Shown: piece after piece, positions 4,590 to 62,190 of the stretch
How positions within the stretch are numbered: the first letter of the stretch is position 1
Layout of the letters: each line of letters begins with the position of its first letter
NCBI GenBank assembly: GCA_951406725.2
Contig: OX597839.1
Coordinates: 34,162,001 to 34,226,000, forward strand
Direction of reading: 5' to 3'
Length of the DNA: 64,000 bases
Origin: Octopus vulgaris
Lineage: Eukaryota
The notes under the pieces: generated by a model
The model's database searches: none
Seen by the model: the letters and a program-made list of their open reading frames with translations, nothing else
Told to the model about the DNA's origin: nothing
Made by a program: the position numbers and the translations under genes

Positions 4590-5003
4590 CTCTTTTACTC
4601 TCTTTTACTTGTTTCAGTCATTTGACTGCAGCCATGCTGGAGCACCGCCTTTAGTTGAGAAAAATTGACCCCGGGACTTATTCTTTGTAAGCCCAGTACT
4701 TATTCTATCGGTCTCTTTTGCCGAACCGCTAAGTTACGGGGACGTAAACATACCAGCATCGGTTGTCAAGCAATGCTAGGGGGACAAACACAGACATACA
4801 AACATATACACACACACATATATATATATATACATATATACGACAGGCTTCTTTCAGTTTCCGTCTACCAAATCCACTCACAAGGCATTGGTCGGCCCGG
4901 GGCTATAGCAGAAGACACTTGCCCAAGATGCCACGCAGTGGGACTGAACCCGGAACCATGTGGTTGGTTAGCAAGCTACTTACCACACAGCCACTCCTGC
5001 GCC
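4590..5003 (-). mobile_element. SINE family A (tRNA-derived, CORE-like, ~420 bp), full length
   Basis: Pol III A box TGGCTGTGTGG and B box GGTTCAGTCCC, CORE-like ggcatcttgggcaagtgtct, internal (TA)(TG) tract, tail gtaaaagag repeats. About 25 full or partial copies in the window. Confidence 0.9.
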
Positions 5004-5206
5004 ATATAATTTACATTTTTGATTTTGAATTCCATTAATTTATTTGGTACTTTTTAGGGCTTGTGTCTGTTTGAATCGAATGCTCAAAATAGAATAAAAC
5101 AACAGCAAAGCTAGAGTCGATCCATCAGGAGTCACAAAGCCTCTCACCTGATGATGTGCAAGGGACACAAATACTGACAGAGTTCGTATTTATTCATGCA
5201 ATATAC

Positions 5207-8296: not shown

Positions 8297-8741
8297 CTAT
8301 CCGCTCATTCGAAGTCGACTCTCGGTCACTTGTTGGATCAGTGTCCTCCAGTCAGTTCTATCCTGGACCACTTCTTTCAGATTGGCTATGTCCATTCCGG
8401 TATCCCTCTTGATGGTGTCAAGCCAGCGGGTTCTTGGTCGGCCTCTTCCTCTCTTGCCACTGACCATTCCGAGCATGATGTCCTTCTCCAGGGATTTTCT
8501 CCGCATAATATGACCGAAATATGCCAATCTATGCTTGGTGATCCTAGCTTCTAGTGACATTTTCAGCCTTATCTGCTTAAGAACTTCTCCATTGGTGAGC
8601 CTCGCTGTCCATGGAATCCGTAAGTCTTCTCCAACACCAAAGCTCGAATGCATTAATTCTCTTCTGGTCTGCTTTCTTTAGTGCCCAGATCTCGCATCCA
8701 TATGTTGCTATTGGGAAGACAATTGCATTCACCAATCTGAT
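8297..8741 (-). mobile_element. RTE-clade (BovB/RTE-1-like) LINE ORF 3' end
   Basis: IRLVNAIVFPIATYGCEIWALKKADQKRINAFELWCWRRL/RIPWTARLTNGEVL...RLAYFGHIMRR..LEKDIMLGMVSGKRGRGRPRTRWLD...DRTDWR are hallmark RTE C-terminal motifs; one frameshift. Confidence 0.92.
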
Positions 8742-20075: not shown

Positions 20076-20894
20076 ATTACATTTAAGACAGGAAGCCCAT
20101 AATTGTGGCGACACTTCAATATATCGAAATGAATATATCTACCTACAGTAATGGCTTTTGCTTCCAGCACCCCCTTCTCCCTCCCTCCATCCCCCCTCTG
20201 TCTCTTACACACACACACACACACACACATATTTATAGTGTGTGGGGGTGGGTAGGTGCTTGTGTGTGTGTGTGTTGGTGTAAATGTGTGTATGTGTGTG
20301 TGTATCTGTGTGTATGTGTGTATGTGTATGTGTGTGTATGTGTGTGTGTGTATGTGTGTGTGTATGTGTGTGTGTATGTGTGTGTATGTGTGTGTGTGTA
20401 TGTGTGTGTATGTGTGCGTGTATGTGTGTGTGTATGTGTGCATGTATATGTGTGTGTATGTGTGTATCTCTGTGTGTGTGTATGTGTGTATCTCTGTGTG
20501 TGTGTATGTGTGTGTGTGTGTGTGTGTGCAAAAGTGAAGGGGAAAATCGTTCCTGCAGGATGGAGATAATTCTGTAAAAATCAAATAATCGCACTTGTAC
20601 ATCACCACCACCACGTCGCCGCAACCACCACCACCACCACCCACCACCACCACCACCACCACCTAACACAACCACCCACTACCACCATCATTACAAACCC
20701 CACCATTGCCATTGCCAAAACTATCACCCCAACGCCACGACCACCAATACTGCTACCATCACCCTTTCCATCCATGCCCTATTTCCATTTTATCATTATT
20801 ACCAAATTTTACCGCCCTTCTCCTTTCGACACATTAAAATCATTACAATAATGTCTGATATGAATCTAATATATAACAATATATACACTGTATA

Positions 20895-20927
<33 letters not shown>

Positions 20928-21070
20928 AGTAGGTGAATGAATTATCCTATGTTTATCGTCTGCATGGAAAATTCGTTTAACCGAAACCTGGGTAGCAAAT
21001 TCAGTTCAGAAAACACGGTTGAAGCTTTGGTTACCATGTAGGCAATCATCGAAATTTTTGTTTGTCTTGT

Positions 21071-21179
21071 TGTCGAGAGAGGCTCCGTTTCTTTCCTGAT
21101 GAGAAGATTGCATAATGCACCCTTTATTCCTTCGGAATAAAAATATGCTGTCTTCGAAACATGTGTCGAGAGTAAAGGA
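21071..21179 (+). ncRNA. Hammerhead ribozyme motif with intact catalytic core
   Basis: CTTTC-CTGATGA(21096-21102)-GAAGA...TCTTC-GAAA(21156-21159)-C-ATGT-G-TC-GAGAG. Stem I is CTTTC/GAGAG. Stem II is GAAGA/TCTTC, extended by GCATA/TATGC and a TTTATTCC/GGAATAAA hairpin. Stem III is minimal with palindromic ACATGT, followed by a GUC triplet. Confidence 0.75.
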
Positions 21180-21219
21180 ATTTTGTTAACATCTTCGTTC
21201 GACTCCATTCTTTCATTTA

Positions 21220-21269
<50 letters not shown>

Positions 21270-21479
21270 GTATAACAATATATATATATATATATATAAA
21301 TTCAGCAAACAATTTAGATTCAAATGAATATGGTACTTAATTTAGATGCACCAGAATTTTTTATGGTGTTATCCATAAAAATATGCCGGGTGATTATAAT
21401 CAAAAATACGCAACAAGAATGGATCCAGTAATTTAGTACAATTGTTTCAAACTATAACATTTTTATAAAAAGCTGTAAA

Positions 21480-21513
<34 letters not shown>

Positions 21514-23092: not shown

Positions 23093-23632
23093 TGGAGCAC
23101 CACCTTTAGTTGAACAAATCAACCCTGGGACTTACTCTTTTGTAAGCCTAGTACTTATTCTATCGGTCACTTTTGCTGATCTGCTAAGCTACAGGAACGT
23201 AAATACACCAGCATTGGTTGTCAAGTGATGGTGGAGAGACAAACACAGACATATAAACTTACGCACACACACACATATATATAAATATGATGGGCTTCTT
23301 TCAGTTTCCATCTACCAAATCCACTCACAAGGCTTTAGTCAGCCCGAGGTTATAGTAGAAGACACTTGCCCAAGGTGCCACGCAGTGGGACTGAACCCAG
23401 AACCATCTGGTTGGTTAAGCCAACTACTTATCACACAGCCATGCCTATGCTTATATATATACATATATACAACGGGCTTCTTTCAGTTTCCGTCTACCAA
23501 ATCCACTCACAAGGCATTGGTTGGCCCGGGGCTATAGCAGAAGACACTTGCCCAAGATGCCACACAGCGGGACTGAACCTGGAACCATGTGGTTGGTCAG
23601 CAAGCTACTTACCACACAGCCACTACTGCACC
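23093..23632 (-). mobile_element. Two tandem SINE family A copies (one near full length, one 5' half)
   Basis: Family A motifs occur twice. Confidence 0.85.
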
Positions 23633-24959
23633 TATGTCTGACATTTTCACACATGGCTATCCTAGAATACCCCCTCCCCCAACATGCTCCAGTCCGCTGG
23701 GTAACACTCGACCCCACCCCACGAACACCACCCCCACCCCACGAACACCCCACCCCACTCACTGCCCCCCGAAGAGAGCGAAAGCCCTGGTGCATTGGTT
23801 CATTTAGTAGCAGTGGTGCAACACCAACCGATTGACAGCCGCAGCAAGATGCATCAAAGGCGTTGCAGTAACTTGCAGCAACAGCAGCAACAGGTGTCGA
23901 CAAAGTTGCGTTGCACGCTCGTGAGCGCAAAACTCTATGACGATCGCCGTTCTGCAAAATACGCAATCGCCGAACCGCGACTGATAACCATACCTGGGTT
24001 TATTCGGAGGAGGAGGAGGTGGAGGTGGAGGAGGAAGAGGAGGGGGGAAAAAGGCAGGTGGAAGATCTGATGCCTTCCTTCAGATCAAACAAATCGCTCA
24101 GCCTAATACTACTACTACTATTGTTATCGCTGCCATCACCACTAGTACTACCACCTCCACCACCCACCCACCCCCCCCCACCAGCATCGCAGCTACCAGT
24201 ACAACCATCCACACCACCACCACTACCTGCAGTACAATTGCTACCACTATGACCAACGCCATATTACTACTACTATTACTACTACTATTCCTACTACTGC
24301 TATTACTACTATTATTACTACTACTATTACTACTACTATTACTACTACTGCTATTACTACTATTATTACTACTACTATTACTACTACTATTACTACTACT
24401 GCTATTACTACTATTATTACTACTACTATTACTACTACTATTCCTACTACTGCTATTACTACTATTATTACTACTACTATTACTACTACTATTCCTACTA
24501 CTGCTATTACTACTACTATTACTACTACTATTACTACTACTATTACTACTACTATTACTACTAATATTACTACTACTGCTACTACTACTAATACTATTAC
24601 TACTACCACTACTATTATTACTACCACCACCACTACTACTACAACTACCGCAGACAACAAACTAAAACCCACAAAATGGAAGCCTTTGTGTGGTTACTCA
24701 GTGTGCTAGAAATAGCAGCCAGATTTGCTCTGCTATTACCTCTGCCACCTTAAAAAGAAAAAGGGGAAGGGTTCACACTGGACCATGTGGTCCTTAATAG
24801 GCAAATGAAACAGGACAGTCATCGCTCTTTGGTCTTAGGTCGTAGGTCAGAGGTCAAGCTAATCAAAGTTTGACTCGTGGTTAAACAACAACAATCCCTC
24901 TATAACCACCAAATAGAAACAGCAGCTAAATCACACTCAGATTACATCTTAGTGTCTGG

Positions 24960-29142: not shown

Positions 29143-29612
29143 GATCAGATGGTGAACACACAGAACAACCGGTGGCTTGCTGTGTCCCCAAAACATGTAC
29201 TCAGAGTGATAAGAATGAAGCATCCAGCAATATCATGGTGTTTGGAGTGATCACTAGTGATGGCAATGTCATGCTTCCATTCATCTTCCCACACGTCCTC
29301 AGACTCAACACGAAGGCCTAGATCAAGTGCCTGGAGGAGGTAGTGCTGCCCTGGGTGAAGAGGGTAGCTGTTGGAAGACCCTATGTCAAGCAACAGGACT
29401 CTGCACCATGCGACACAAGCAGGAGAACCCAGTCATGGCTGTCAGACAATTTCTGCAACCACATCATCCCTCACATCTGGCCACCTGACTCCCCAGACTG
29501 CAACCCTCTTGATTATTATGCGTGGGGTGCAGTTGAGCGAGAGACCAACAAAAATTTTTCTAACACCAAAGACAAACCGAAGGCAAGGGTCATGGCAGAT
29601 TTCACAAACTGA
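29143..29612 (+). mobile_element. Tc1/mariner-superfamily transposase pseudogene fragment
   Basis: QNNRWLA..KHPA/IMVFGVITSDG..LPFIFP..LRLN...YVKQQDSAPC..SRRTQSWL....WPPDSPDCNPLDYYAWG contains QD.AP and SPD.NPLD motifs, with a stop and a frameshift. Confidence 0.9.
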
Positions 29613-36431: not shown

Positions 36432-36935
36432 TTATAATATAATATAATGAAATTGTTGTATACAGTGCTCAGGTGCACCACAACTTGTCAGAAAGTGCGT
36501 ATAAAGCATCTGCAGTAATGTAGAAATGTCTGGAAAGCGAACAATGCATGAGTCAGAACATGCTTGCGTGTGTATGGAGGGGAGGAGAAGATCAGGTGTA
36601 GTGTTGGCGAATATCAGGAAGCATGGAAGTTTTGAAGGATGCAGTGCTCCGACAACTAACAACTGATGCCAGCAGTTTGTTCCATGCTTCAGCAACTCTT
36701 AGCGTGAGAAAAATGTTTACGAAAGTCATGGAAGGAGCTGTGCTGTTTTCTGACTTTGTAAATATGTCCACAGGTGTTAGACGGGTGGAGTTTGAAAGGG
36801 TGCTCAGAGTTATTGTTTGTAAGATGGTTGATAATTTTATGGGTGTCTGCCAAGTCAGCTGCCAGACGTCGGAGTTTCAATGTGTCCATGCCCAGGGAAG
36901 TAAGGCGTTCAGGATATTATCCTTGAAGATTTATG
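36432..36935 (-). mobile_element. CR1-like LINE 3' end; short tail copy also at ~29695-29790
   Basis: MDTLKLRRLAADLADTHKII...SNTCGHIYKVRKQH...RKHF/LRVAEAWNKL..SVV...ASFK corresponds to the CR1/L2 C-terminal motifs RR.RGDL..YKI, TRGH..KL, FS.RVV..WN.LP. Confidence 0.85.
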
Positions 36936-40820: not shown

Positions 40821-41832
40821 CTGTTCCGATGTATGTAGCATGAAAAATTGACGTGTGCCAACCAAAATCGATTGCAATTCTGACGTGAAAGATTTGTCAT
40901 TAGAATCAATTCGCTGTTTTCACAGCCAAATGGTTTATTGAAATATATTCAAAGTTTTCTGAGTACAAAAGCAGGGAATAAAACTGACAGAACAATTCAG
41001 CCGTGGATGTTAGTTTAAAATTTTTAGCTTCTACAAAGGAAATATATTTGTTTAGTTTAGTTGGAGGGGAGGGGGGATGTTTGAAAAAAAAAAAAAAAGA
41101 AAAAAAGGAAAAAGCATAAATCATCATCATCGTCATCATCAACAACACCATCTTTATTAACATGGCTGTCATCATCATCATCATCATCATCATCGTTGTC
41201 GTCGTCGTCATTGTCATCATCATCACCATCATATTCAACACCACCATTATCGACATAGATCGTTATCATTATCATTATCATCATCATCATCATTATCATC
41301 ATCATCACCACCACCATCACCATCAACCCCATCCTCATTATCAAATTTGATTGTCATCATCATCATCATCATCATCGTTGCCATCAGCATTGCCCTGGAT
41401 CCTCCCACACACAAACCACCTTATCATCCCCCCCTTGCTCTCCCTCTCTCTCCCTCCCTCTCTCTCTCCCACCCTCTCACTCTCTCTCCCTCCCTCTCTC
41501 TCTCTCTCTCCCTCCCACCCTCTCTCTCTCCACTCACCTTGTTTAGATTGGAAGGAACAATGCAGGTAGCGATGGACAGGTGTGTTTATGGGTTTCCATA
41601 TAACGAATGGCTCTCCCTCCTTCCCAGGATCTCCATTGGGCAAATATCATCTACTAGAGCCTCAAGCCACCCCACTCCACTGTTCTACATTGTGAAGGGA
41701 AACTGTGGAAACTCATTGTATATACATTTTATTTTTCTATTTGTTTCAGTCATTTTGAATGCAGCCATGCTGTGCTCCAGCATGGCCACAGTCAAAATGA
41801 CTGAAACAAGTAAAATATATATATATAATATT

Positions 41833-42222
41833 GGGGCAGGAGTGGCTGTGTGGTAAGTAGCTTGTTTACCAACCACATGGTCCAGGGTTCAGTCCCACTG
41901 CGTGGCATCTTGGGCAAGTGTCTTCTGCTATAGCCCCGGGCCGACCAATGCCTTGTGAGTGGATTTGGTAGACGGAAACTGAAAGAAGCCCGTCGTATAT
42001 ATGTGTATATATATATATGCGTGTGTGTGTTTGTCCCCCTAGCATTGCTTGACAACCAATGCTGGTGTGTTTACGTCCCCGTCACTTAGCGGTTTGGCAA
42101 AAGAGACCGATAGAATAAGTACTGGGCTCACAAAGAAAAAGTCCCGGGGTCGATTTGCTCGACTAAAGGCGGTGCTCCAGCATGGCCGCAGTCAAATGAC
42201 TGAAACAAGTAAAAGAGTAAAA
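41833..42222 (+). mobile_element. SINE family A, full length
   Basis: Complete head, core and gtaaaagagtaaaag tail. Confidence 0.9.
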
Positions 42223-44780: not shown

Positions 44781-44987
44781 CTACTCTTTTACTTGTTTCA
44801 GTCATTTGACTGCGGCCATGCTGGAGCACCGCTCTTTAATCGAGCAACTCGACCTCGGGACTTATTCTTTTGTAAGCTCGGTACTTATTCTATCGGTCTC
44901 TTTTTGCCGAACCGCTAAGTAACGGGGACATAAACACACCAGCATCGGTTGTCAAGCAATGCTAGGGGGACAAACACAGATACACAA

Positions 44988-45018
<31 letters not shown>

Positions 45019-45190
45019 CATATATACGACGGGCTTCTTTCAGTTTCCGTCTATCAAATCCACTGACAAGGCTTTGGTCAGCCCGAGGCTATAGTAGAAG
45101 ACACTTGCCCAAGGTGCCACACAGTGGGACTGAACCCGGAGTCATGTGGTTGGTAAACAAGCTACTTACCACACAGCCACTCCTGTGCCT
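44781..45190 (-). mobile_element. SINE family A, full length
   Basis: Family A motifs. Confidence 0.9.
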
Positions 45191-45193
45191 GTC

Positions 45194-45224
<31 letters not shown>

Positions 45225-45366
45225 CTTTCTATGTAATCTCCAATTTTAAAAACACATAATATATAACAGTGGCACTTGTTTACAGCTTTCAGATGATGAC
45301 AAAACAAGGAGACAAACACATACACACACTGACACACAGACATACACACACACAGACATATATATA

Positions 45367-48407: not shown

Positions 48408-48644
48408 TACTCTCTTTTACTCTTTTACTTATTTCAGTCATTTTGACTGCGGCCATGCTTGAGCACCGCCTTCAGTTGAGCAACTCGACCCCGGGACTTA
48501 TTCTTTTAGTAAGCCCAGTACTTAATCTATCGGTCTCTTTGCCGAACCGCTAAGTGACGGGGACGTAAACACACCAGCATCGGTTGTCAAGCAATGCTAG
48601 GGGAACAAACACAGACACACAAACATATACACACACATACATAT

Positions 48645-48701
<57 letters not shown>

Positions 48702-48872
48702 CATATATACGATGGGCTTCTTTCAGTTTCCGTCTACTAAATCCACTCACAAGGCATTGGTCGGCCCGGGGCTATGGTAGAAGACACTTGCCCAAGATGC
48801 CATGCAGTGGGACTGAACCTGGAATCATGTGGTTGGTAAGCAAGCTACTTACCACACAGCCACTCCTGTGCC
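48408..48872 (-). mobile_element. SINE family A, full length
   Basis: Family A motifs. Confidence 0.9.
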
Positions 48873-49469
48873 TATTTTGAGCATATTTTGAACTCTTTAA
48901 GCTCATCAGACTTCATCTTGATATCAGAAATATTTCCAGTGTTTTTACATCAGATGATGGAATTTGGAATCCAGAAATGGTAAACCCTTGAGGGTGGAGC
49001 AGACTACATCTGACAAGTGTGTGATATCATTTATACATCGCAGGTATATCGTGATAAGGAAGATAACGACAACGATGGCTAGAATGATGACGAGGGGGAA
49101 ACTGATAATGGCAATGACGATCATTATCATCATCATCATCATCATCATCATAATTCTCGTCGTTGTCACGTTGGTTATGGTGAAGATGTACAGGGTGAGG
49201 AAGCAAAAGAGGAGGAGGAGGAGTATGAAGGGGAGGAGGTGAAAGGAGGAGGAGGTGGTGGTGGTGGAGGAGATGAATGGAGAAAATGTTATATTGGTAA
49301 TGACAAAGGCAATGCTATTATCATTGATGATGATGACGACAATGACGATGATGATCGTGGTGGTGGTGGTGATGATTATGTTGGTGGCAAGGAGTAGAAG
49401 GAGGTGGATGGACATGATGATTATGAAGACAGTGTTATCGGTGGTGGATGGCAATGGTGGGTAATGAGG

Positions 49470-57070: not shown

Positions 57071-58150
57071 TAAGAAACCCTCAAATAGGAAACTAGAGCT
57101 TATCAAGAAAAGAACTACATAAATTCTTCAAAAGATTTGGACTATCTACCTCTTGCTCACCTCTGTTAACTACCTAGACACAACCTGCAACCTAGCCACA
57201 GGACTCTATGAACCCTACATGAAACCTAACATGAACCTCAAATATATAAATGCTGCAAGTAACCACCCTAACTTTATTAAGAGAAGCTTAGTACATAGCA
57301 TTAGCAATAGAATATCACTCGTCTCTTCTAACATAGACATCTTTAACAGACATAAAGAAACCTATAACTCTACACTACGGAAAGCAGGATTTAAACAAAA
57401 AATCAAATACCAAAACCCTAATCACCCTATAAGCACCCCCAAATAACAGAAACCCATTCACTAATACTACGAACACCAACCACACACCATGCACCACCAG
57501 AAACTAGACCAACAATAAGATAATTACGGGTAATTTCAATATGAACAGTGCCAAGGCCCATACACAAACCACTAACAACAACAAAAATAACCGCAACAGT
57601 AATACCGACAAACTGATATTAAATAAGATTAACAATATTAACAAAACTAATAACACAAAATACGCAAATAAGTCCCCAAATAACATCAGCTACAAAAATA
57701 ATAGTATAAACTTATACATTGGTATCTATAAAACTAAAGTCACCCAACGAAGTAATATTAACCCTAATAATAGCAAAGAAACTAGGCCCTTGAACCCACA
57801 TGAACCCTACGATAATAACAACAATAGGACAGACAAGAGCAACATGAAAGTGAAGCATGACTATGGATATAACCAAGGTATGTACAACCATAACTTCACA
57901 CAAATCACAAACAAGGAGGGAAGCTTCTATACTAGGAAAAATAAACAAAATAGGGATAATATCTGGCTCGTAATCCCCTACACCATGCACCTCAAATCAA
58001 ATATAGTTCCCTCGTTAATGAAAATCATAGACAAACACCTAAACGTTAATAATAAGTAGATAGAATTATTTAGGAATAAAATGAGAATAGGCCACAGCCT
58101 GACTAATAACTTGGCCACAATAATAGCCTCAATGAATAATAAAAAGTTTG
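57071..58150 (+). mobile_element. Penelope-like retroelement RT thumb/linker pseudogene
   Basis: VNYLDTTCNLATGLYEPYMKPNMNLKYINAASNHPNFIKRSL..SISNRIS..SSNIDIFN...YNSTLRKAGF, then an Asn-rich linker, then RDNIWLVIPY...KSNI...MKIIDKHL...*IELFRNKMRIGHSLTNNLATII. These match PLE motifs YLD/PYxKP/SNHP and IIWFNPPY..IDKHF; internal stops are present. Confidence 0.88.
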
Positions 58151-61220: not shown

Positions 61221-61346
61221 ACACACATTAATAACAGTTTGACTCAGTTTCATATGATTTAAAGCTTCATAGGTTTGTATGAAGAATACAGATAAATAGA
61301 TAGATTCCCGTTTATCTATCTATCTATCTATCTATTTACAATATAA

Positions 61347-61379
<33 letters not shown>

Positions 61380-62190
61380 GGCGCATGAGTGGCTGTGTGG
61401 TAAGTAGCTTGCTAACCAACCACATGGTTCCGGGTTCAGTCCCACTGCGAGGCATCTTAGGCAAGTGTCTTCTGCTATAGCCCTGGGCCGACCAATGCCT
61501 TGTGAGTGGATTTGGTAGACGGAAACTGAAAGAAGCCTGTCGTATATATGTATATATATATATGTATGTGTTTGTGTGTGTGTGTTTGTCCCCCTAGCAT
61601 TGCTTGACAACTGATGCCGGTGTGTTTACGTCCCCGTCACTTAGCGGTTCGGTAAAAGAGACCGATAGAATAAGTACTGGGCTTACAAAGAATAAGTCCC
61701 GGGGTCGATTTGCGCGACTAAAAGGCGGTGCTTCAGCATGGCCGCTGTCAAATGACTGAAACAAGAAAAAGAGAAAGAGAAAGATATATATATATATATA
61801 TAGGCGTTGGAGTGGCTGTGTGGCAATAGCTTGCTTACCAACCACATGGTTCCGGGTTCAGTCCCTCTGCGTGGCACCTTGGGTAAGTGTCTTCTGCTAT
61901 AGCCTCGGGCTGACCAATGCCTTGTGAGTGGATTCGGTAGACGGAAACTGAAAGAAGCCTGTCGTATATATGTATATATGTGTGTGTGTTTGCGTGTCTG
62001 TGTTTGTCCCCCCAACATCGCTTGACAACCGATGCTGGTGTGTTTACGTCCCCGTAACTTAGCGGTTCGGCAAAAGAGACCGATAGAATAAGTACTAGGC
62101 TTACAAAGAATAAGTCCCGGGGTCGATTTGCTCGACTACAGGCAGTGCTCCAGCATGGCCACAGTCTAATGACTGAAACAAGTTAAAGAG
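61380..62190 (+). mobile_element. Two head-to-tail full-length SINE family A copies (61380-61775, 61803-62190)
   Basis: Family A motifs twice, each preceded by (TA)n. Confidence 0.9.

Follow-up and report, generated by a model that had tools for sequence, protein, structure and literature searches.

A type I hammerhead motif with a long stem II in a high-copy octopus repeat family, and an upstream copy of its cleavage-site sequence that may form a competing hairpin

The nearest described counterparts of the locus reported here are the hammerhead ribozymes of Penelope-like elements (PLEs) and of animal retrozymes, for which we draw on the accessible parts of the papers cited. PLE hammerheads have a palindromic helix III, cleave as dimers and show low activity (PMC4209133), and GUU occurs at their natural cleavage sites (PMC4209133, supplement). 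Animal retrozymes form circles of 170–400 nt from tandem type I ribozymes, with ligation by RtcB; stem III of the invertebrate retrozymes consists of 2 bp and a tetraloop, and in plant retrozymes and viroids the ribozyme is blocked by complementary sequence (PMC7229834). A derivation of the animal retrozymes from the pseudo-LTRs of PLEs has been described (bioRxiv 10.64898/2026.07.22.740005). The targets of PLEs include (TA)n sequences, also for the Octopus Naiads, which, as far as the accessible part of that study goes, lack canonical hammerheads (PMC8557442). For cephalopod hammerheads, all that we found in the literature is a count of Rfam matches: 235 to Hammerhead_1 in the giant squid (PMC6962438, accessible part). 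Engineered hairpin ribozymes with two sites have also been described (PMC12118343); further background is given in PMC6155905, PMC11662667, PMC10085705 and PMC8754997. In the literature that we covered, which took in few subscription papers and had Repbase and Dfam outside its scope, we found no description of the present repeat family, nor of a natural hammerhead in which one core serves two sites.

The window that we analysed, a stretch of 64,000 nt (64 kb) of Octopus vulgaris DNA, is microsatellite-dense animal DNA (216 tandem-repeat rows), in which a repeat of about 295 bp and 38% GC stretches between (TA)n tracts (20929–21222; Table 1). This repeat contains a genuine type I hammerhead motif (core at 21096–21159), which we place as a new member among those of metazoans. 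An earlier note, made from the letters of this DNA, had pointed out an intact core (CUGAUGA at 21096–21102 and GAAA at 21156–21159, + strand), a long stem II and two copies of the 9-mer TGTCGAGAG (21071–21079 and 21164–21172); our coordinate check confirmed all of these, and stem II (21103–21155) has a fold z of −4.68, with none of 200 shuffled sequences equally stable. The sequence matches the CUGANGA, GAAA and UH consensus of type I hammerheads and has their topology: stems II and III are closed and stem I (CTTTC, 21091–21095, with GAGAG, 21168–21172) is open, stem III comprising 2 bp in the monomer and 8 bp in the dimer. G21103 pairs directly with C21155, leaving no unpaired nucleotide between the core and G10.1. 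A scan of both strands of the 64 kb for core plus stem II (CTGANGA...GAAA with at least three closing pairs) returned two matches, only one of which, with its core at 21096–21159, has six closing pairs.

The register of the fold was given by Rfam. When 21040–21215 was scanned, Hammerhead_1 (RF00163) aligned to 21090–21173 in the type I register (E 0.055): the motif is like the model in all 45 of its positions, with core and cleavage triplet intact, and unlike it in carrying a 49-nt insertion in stem II and in scoring 18.1 bits, below the gathering score of 34. At gathering score no Rfam family matched anywhere in the 64-kb window, and a scan of 20800–21500 by E-value gave 18 weak matches with no hammerhead among them. 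The type I register, the cut after C21167 and a palindromic stem III, all proposed in the earlier note, thereby stand; the palindrome had been read as ACATGT and is in fact ACATGTGT (21159–21166), because a cut after C21167 needs the pairs A21159–U21166 and C21160–G21165. The duplex formed by two copies of stem III is calculated at −6.0 kcal/mol, or at −7.0 kcal/mol with the family letter. The motif is likely to cut solely at the downstream site, after C21167.

Table 1. Coordinates of the repeat, its flanks and the hammerhead features within the window
Feature	Position	Strand	Evidence
(TACA)n/(TA)n tract on the 5' side, likely target of insertion	20895–20927	.	TA tracts beside the 5' ends of other copies
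One copy of the high-copy family, ends inferred from TA flanks	20929–21222	+	Contigs, depth
5' segment of the repeat, no hammerhead core	20929–21024	+	Sequence, scan, contigs
Upstream arm, predicted to pair with 21087–21108 as a blocking hairpin	21064–21083	+	Folding models
Upstream TGTCGAGAG, candidate type III cut after C21074	21071–21079	+	Coordinate check; C21074T frequencies
5' strand of stem I in the type I fold	21084–21095	+	Rfam alignment, folding, family variants
Core CUGAUGA, adjoining G10.1 with no nucleotide in between	21096–21102	+	Rfam alignment; no listed variant
Long stem II (53 nt), inner hairpin 21123–21141	21103–21155	+	z = −4.68; variants
Core GAAA	21156–21159	+	Coordinate check, Rfam alignment
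Stem III ACATGTGT with central G.U pairs; 2 bp + tetraloop in the monomer or 8-bp self-complementary helix in the dimer	21159–21166	+	
C17, predicted cleavage site (GUC)	21167	+	Rfam Hammerhead_1 register
Stem I 3' strand with one bulge	21168–21179	+	Folding
3' tail of the repeat; 21204–21214 can pair weakly with 21168–21179	21180–21222	+	Not significant (equalled by 244 of 1000 shuffles)
3' flanking (TA)n tract	21223–21298	.	Tandem-repeat list

Several features of this motif recall the hammerheads of PLE pseudo-LTRs (Cervera and De la Pena 2014, PMC4209133, accessible part): the type I topology, the G10.1–C11.1 pair and the long helix II; a palindrome formed by 15.2–16.2 and loop 3, with a helix III suited to dimers; a U-rich 5' flank and an AU-rich 3' flank; and an occurrence mostly as dispersed single motifs. 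The octopus motif differs from the minimal PLE hammerheads of that study in that core position 9 adjoins 10.1 with no unpaired nucleotide in between, and from its PLE hammerheads in a far longer helix II (53 nt), a helix I that extends past a bulge and the absence of an adjoining RT-EN ORF: the ORF list of the window holds no recognisable RT plus GIY-YIG ORF near the element. With the metazoan non-LTR retrozymes (Cervera and De la Pena 2020, PMC7229834; bioRxiv 10.64898/2026.07.22.740005) the repeat family shares the attributes by which these are recognised, namely that it is non-coding, low in GC (below 50%) and high in copy number, and also a type I hammerhead, a stem III of 2 bp with a tetraloop and a unit of a few hundred bases (PMC7229834). 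In contrast to those elements, which form circles of 170–400 nt, carry two successive ribozymes and have mostly unblocked folds in animals, the octopus locus is not tandem. The blocked LTR retrozymes of plants and the viroids (PMC7229834) are similar in that a complementary segment lies over the ribozyme in the most stable fold; theirs are type III ribozymes in circular RNAs, whereas the octopus block would be a local 5' arm of marginal significance. We conclude that the repeat family is likely to be Penelope- or retrozyme-related. On this reading it adds to the known animal type I hammerheads a family of high copy number, of which stem II is unusually long and which may carry a 5' blocking arm.

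Part of the repeat stretch is contained in 20 of 24 public runs, which together carry four organism labels and come from ten studies. Our family data derive from four of the 24 runs, with contigs aligned at 80% likeness: X1 (organism A, presumed to be DNA), X3 (organism C, treated as DNA from its size), and X6 (organism C) and X16 (organism A), both of which are RNA by guess only and are called putative RNA below. Contigs that match the repeat number 981, 2261, 64 and 94, respectively; the repeat at 20929–21222 therefore belongs to a high-copy family. Depth collapses at 21022–21041 in the runs, and in all four of them loose ends at 21024–21026 enter other sequence, so that the 20929–21222 copy is likely to be internally deleted near 21024–21033. 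The loose ends also indicate that TA tracts precede the 5' end of other family copies, and that some members have a different 5' flank and lack the upstream site, the break coming before 21090/21092 in X1 and X16 and before 21078 in X3 and X6 (among the 24 loose ends listed of 191). By eye, the alternative flank of X1 and X16 extends the pairing to the downstream strand by 9 bp. No other copy of the repeat was detected in the 64-kb window by self-BLAST; the locus has a single hammerhead in a single copy, with no tandem units of 150–450 bp that each bear a hammerhead. Pattern scans for the motif in metagenome contigs, viral contigs and prokaryote genomes gave no match. We considered and rejected a terminal-inverted-repeat element, the end arms of which pair loosely (whole-element z = −1.7), and a second hammerhead at 20983–20994 (GAAAC...GTA), which has no CUGANGA upstream of it. 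In the same 5' segment, a hairpin at about 20972–20985 becomes, by eye, a perfect palindrome with the common variant T20976G, and the sequence that follows it, to 20994, runs GAAAC, near-palindrome, GTA, like the 3' half of a hammerhead without the 5' core. One X1 contig joins the 5' terminal segment (20949) to 21168, the first base past the predicted cut; joints landing at 21161–21168 make up 4 of the 17 listed.

The family variants appear to favour the type I fold with the cut after C21167. They come from unphased contigs, in which true covariation is not countable, and are counted over the best 40 of 57 variant rows: on that basis, none of the 15 core positions is among the 25 positions of 21060–21190 that vary in DNA (P = 0.034). 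The listed DNA variants keep or gain the pair in 10 of 14 cases at type I pairs and in six of seven at the modelled pairs of stem II; at type III-specific pairs, two of six listed variants do so. Pairs of the type I fold are lost through T21089A, T21144C, G21172A and G21177A, the last of which would pair with T21087, the contigs being unphased. G21163A, present at 68, 61, 66 and 82% (X1, X3, X6 and X16), turns stem III into a perfect palindrome; in the same order, C21167T stands at 1.6, 10.3, 5.2 and 4.6%. At 21087, C and T together make up no less than 99.9% of the family depth in each of the four runs, and G 0.1% or less. As either C or T pairs with G21177, stem I of the type I fold is extended in the family, and the G21087 of the 20929–21222 copy is a rare letter. 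Along the 3' strand of stem I, G21170A, which changes U.G to U–A, reaches 15–40% and G21172A, which breaks a pair, 18–40%; with these two changes the downstream 9-mer varies as much as the upstream one.

What, then, is the upstream TGTCGAGAG? Folding models suggest that it is likely to be one arm of a competing hairpin, not a second cut site. We folded the region in 12 settings (two starts, three ends, and window or family letters at two positions). The arm at 21064–21083 is predicted to pair over 19 bp, so as to cover the 5' strand of stem I, the core GAUGA and the start of stem II, with UUGUC placed on the core GAUGA; its pairing probability over the core is 0.2–0.8 in 11 of the 12 settings. 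When C is placed at 21087 the blocking hairpin slips by 2 bases, and pairing over the core stays at 0.99. Compared with shuffled arms, the hairpin is of marginal significance (102 of 2000, 91 of 1000 and 76 of 1000 as good; p about 0.05–0.09). The resemblance to a cleavage site follows from the pairing itself: only U can pair with A21099, and only C or U with G21098, so an arm over the core reads U-H beside the stem I partner. Since an arm that pairs with CUUUC and the core GAUG thus reads U-(C/U) followed by the stem I partner, the look of a second site needs no further cause. This explains 'second cleavage sites' near hammerheads: any arm over stem I and core mimics one. Patterns compatible with type III (H between a stem III of 3 bp and a stem I of 5 bp, G.U allowed) arose in 538 of 20,000 shuffles of 20929–21087 and in 189 of 20,000 of 21030–21087; when 8 bp were required of stem I, they arose in 74 and 12 of 20,000, respectively. 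These counts indicate that the upstream look-alike is uncommon for one locus and would recur often across many hammerheads.

A type III fold built on the upstream 9-mer, as outlined in the earlier note, can indeed be drawn: its stem I would consist of GAGAGAGG (21075–21082), a loop (21083–21087) and TTTCTTTC (21088–21095), and on 21060–21190 it comes to −19.5 kcal/mol versus −20.0 kcal/mol for the extended type I fold. Its stem III has 3 bp, a duplex energy of −1.8 kcal/mol and a pair probability that exceeds 0.0025 in none of the 12 settings. Over these settings the modelled share of active type III lies between 4.6e-8 and 8.9e-4, and in a 5' product ending at 21167 between 5.9e-6 and 2.6e-4; the models are of the nearest-neighbour kind, which leave out tertiary contacts and underestimate the active fold of any hammerhead. 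With the window copy's own letters, type III wins in two of four settings (6-fold and 2-fold) and type I in the other two (1.7-fold and 700-fold). With family letters at the two positions, active type I beats type III by 74- to 2e5-fold in four of four settings, and stem I has a probability of 0.94–0.96 in the type I form versus 0.001 in the type III form (21060–21190). The C21087 of the family takes the type III pair 21075:21095 from a probability of 0.86 to 0.05. The type III stem I owes its strength mainly to the window copy's G21087, a letter that is rare in the family. A stable open stem III and a closed stem I in register, which mark the type III class, were not found. As for Rfam, to which the earlier note had looked for both classes, Hammerhead_1 aligned in the type I register below gathering score, as described above, and Hammerhead_3 gave no match on 21040–21165; a scan of that segment, in which the type III fold is the one option left, yielded no hammerhead family at E up to 10, a weak blank in that the long stem II penalises any model.

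The reading that we consider probable, if well short of certain, is that of a type I hammerhead near the 3' end of an abundant non-coding repeat, with a single cut after C21167 and the upstream arm as a competing hairpin. Family transcripts would form stem I using the downstream GAGAG strand. Their weak stem III would be closed either by a tetraloop on 2 bp or, with greater efficiency, by the pairing of two copies along the 8-nt palindrome. Cleavage would define an end of the RNA, which a Penelope-like reverse transcriptase might then copy back into (TA)n sites. The arm at 21064–21083 may damp cleavage by pairing over stem I and the core, or may be a passenger. The family would most likely be a non-autonomous retroelement, and the 20929–21222 copy probably a weakly active, internally deleted one in which the rare G21087 would strengthen the blocking hairpin. 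We infer the PLE link rather than observe it, because no RT/EN ORF adjoins the repeat, the core is followed by no extra nucleotide, and three short motifs of the ribozyme are absent from the one file of the supplement of Craig et al. (PMC8557442) that was searched.

The earlier note had gone further: one core would alternate between the type I and type III folds, cut after both C21167 and C21074, and free 21075–21167 for ligation into a 93-nt circle. Applied to the family, this would mean that a repeat with very many copies releases self-excised, minimal circular ribozymes, with loss of upstream-GUC copies from RNA as the footprint of the upstream cut. We judge this model unlikely. It can appeal to the two drawable folds, to the settings in which type III rivals type I in the window copy, and to precedent: RtcB circularises hammerhead products (PMC7229834), and engineered two-site hairpin ribozymes (PMC12118343; PMC8754997) follow the same logic of two folds, two cuts and a small circle. 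Those ribozymes, as described in the accessible part of PMC12118343, are artificial, belong to another ribozyme class and have both folds designed to be stable, whereas the second octopus fold is predicted to be rare. Also in its favour, C21074 is kept in 76% and 81% of the DNA depth aligned there (X1 and X3) and in 15% and 8% in putative RNA (X6 and X16), as if GUC copies were cut. C21074T, at 23.7% and 18.6% in X1 and X3 versus 84.6% and 91.8% in X6 and X16, is the largest concordant RNA-versus-DNA shift (rank 1 among the best 40 of 57 variant rows), and would look like the outcome of cleavage of GUC copies. Against this, coverage at 21074 relative to 21107 is barely lower in the putative RNA runs (0.26 and 0.27 versus 0.28 and 0.39 in DNA), where it should have fallen about four-fold had GUC copies been removed; T is carried by only 5 and 4 contigs (X6 and X16); and positions 21063 and 21139 shift too, as expected if few loci dominate. 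Given that GUU is natural at PLE hammerhead sites, a T at 21074 need not kill the site, and so it neither proves nor removes it. Among the best 15 of 19 joints and two further ones, all from X1 and X3 contigs, there is no joint that goes back, from 21167 to 21075 or otherwise, and the contig data reveal no position at which molecules start or stop in number. Rare forms are lost from contigs, which cannot show absence, and most libraries would fail to retain a circle of 93 nt. The conservation of the upstream 9-mer is likewise divided: C21074 prevails in DNA, and some family members lack the site. The release of a 93-nt circle is not supported, in view of the rarity of G21087 (at most 0.1%), the family's C at that position shifting the hairpin 2 nt out of register, of the folding models (active type III fraction at most 8.9e-4), of the Rfam scan and of the members without the site. 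If true, the two-cut model would provide a natural counterpart of the engineered self-excising ribozymes, with circles smaller than the 170–400 nt of retrozymes.

Two other readings leave the downstream cut in place. The same type I ribozyme could be accompanied by an upstream 9-mer that is a neutral relic (of partial duplication or of RT fold-back) or the product of chance, inherited from one master and devoid of a regulatory role; this we regard as rather doubtful. Repeated 9-mers of any kind occur in 1142 of 5000 shuffles of the element, the stability of the hairpin is marginal, the arm shows no extra conservation (3 of 12 positions variable versus 2.3 expected) and is missing from some members, and a gapped similarity between 21035–21095 and 21160–21214 can be drawn. 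That similarity, however, is equalled in 175 and 650 of 2000 shuffles and falls short of significance; chance seldom produces the exact 9-mer (11 of 20,000 shuffles of the upstream 162 nt); and the arm is predicted to pair over those 19 bp, with two of the three listed variants at its core-side pairs keeping a G.U pair. An old tandem duplication of 93 or 122 nt, tried as the source of the 9-mer, was rejected as not significant (175 to 1457 of 2000 shuffles in eight self-alignment tests). Improbable, in our estimate, is the reading that takes the family for a tandem non-LTR retrozyme, or for some other non-autonomous retroelement, of which a longer unit is circularised between successive type I hammerheads and the present locus is a dead solo fragment. 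The 2-bp stem III with tetraloop and the direct continuation of the core into stem II do fit invertebrate retrozyme hammerheads, as does a GC content below 50%; retrozyme families often include solo monomers (bioRxiv 10.64898/2026.07.22.740005, accessible part), and the family continues beyond 21024 in sequence that is missing from the window copy. Yet the locus has one hammerhead and no tandem unit, TA tracts adjoin the start of other copies too, in keeping with dispersed insertion, and no joint of the 3' end to the 5' end of the repeat is among those listed.

The putative RNA runs show a further set of changes. In X16 we observed A>G at 21126, 21174–21176, 21180 and 21188 (8–31%) and T>C at 21153 and 21187 (8%), changes that amount to no more than 0.04% in X1 and X3. 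They look like A-to-I editing of family transcripts on both strands, although they could be alleles, X1 being another individual; by this token X16 is probably RNA. The changes concern transcripts of the family and say nothing on the 20929–21222 locus itself. They cluster on the 3' strand of stem I and on the tail, and could alter folding of the ribozyme.

Elsewhere in the window, decayed frames at 57123–58100 (+), some 36 kb from the repeat, resemble the thumb and linker of a Penelope-like RT. The frame at 57123–57446 resembles Atlas clusters with Pfam PF26215 (score 0.97, 24 of 30 matches, recognition 2286 versus the 2300 mark), a domain that, with the motifs seen there, we take to be typical of PLE RT thumbs. 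Pfam itself gave no match for the frames at 57123–58100, and no hammerhead was found beside them. Other decayed frames, at 8297–8677 (−), 36592–36876 (−) and 29322–29612 (+), resemble, on inspection by eye, the tails of LINE RTs and part of a DDE transposase; a Pfam search of five ORF fragments returned one weak match, to DDE_3 (E 0.06), at 29322–29612 (+). Another short interspersed repeat recurs at 4659–5038, 23229–23641, 41792–42070, 44934–45236, 48569–48880 and 61332–62182, among other places, and was noticed through near-identical junk translations among the ORFs.
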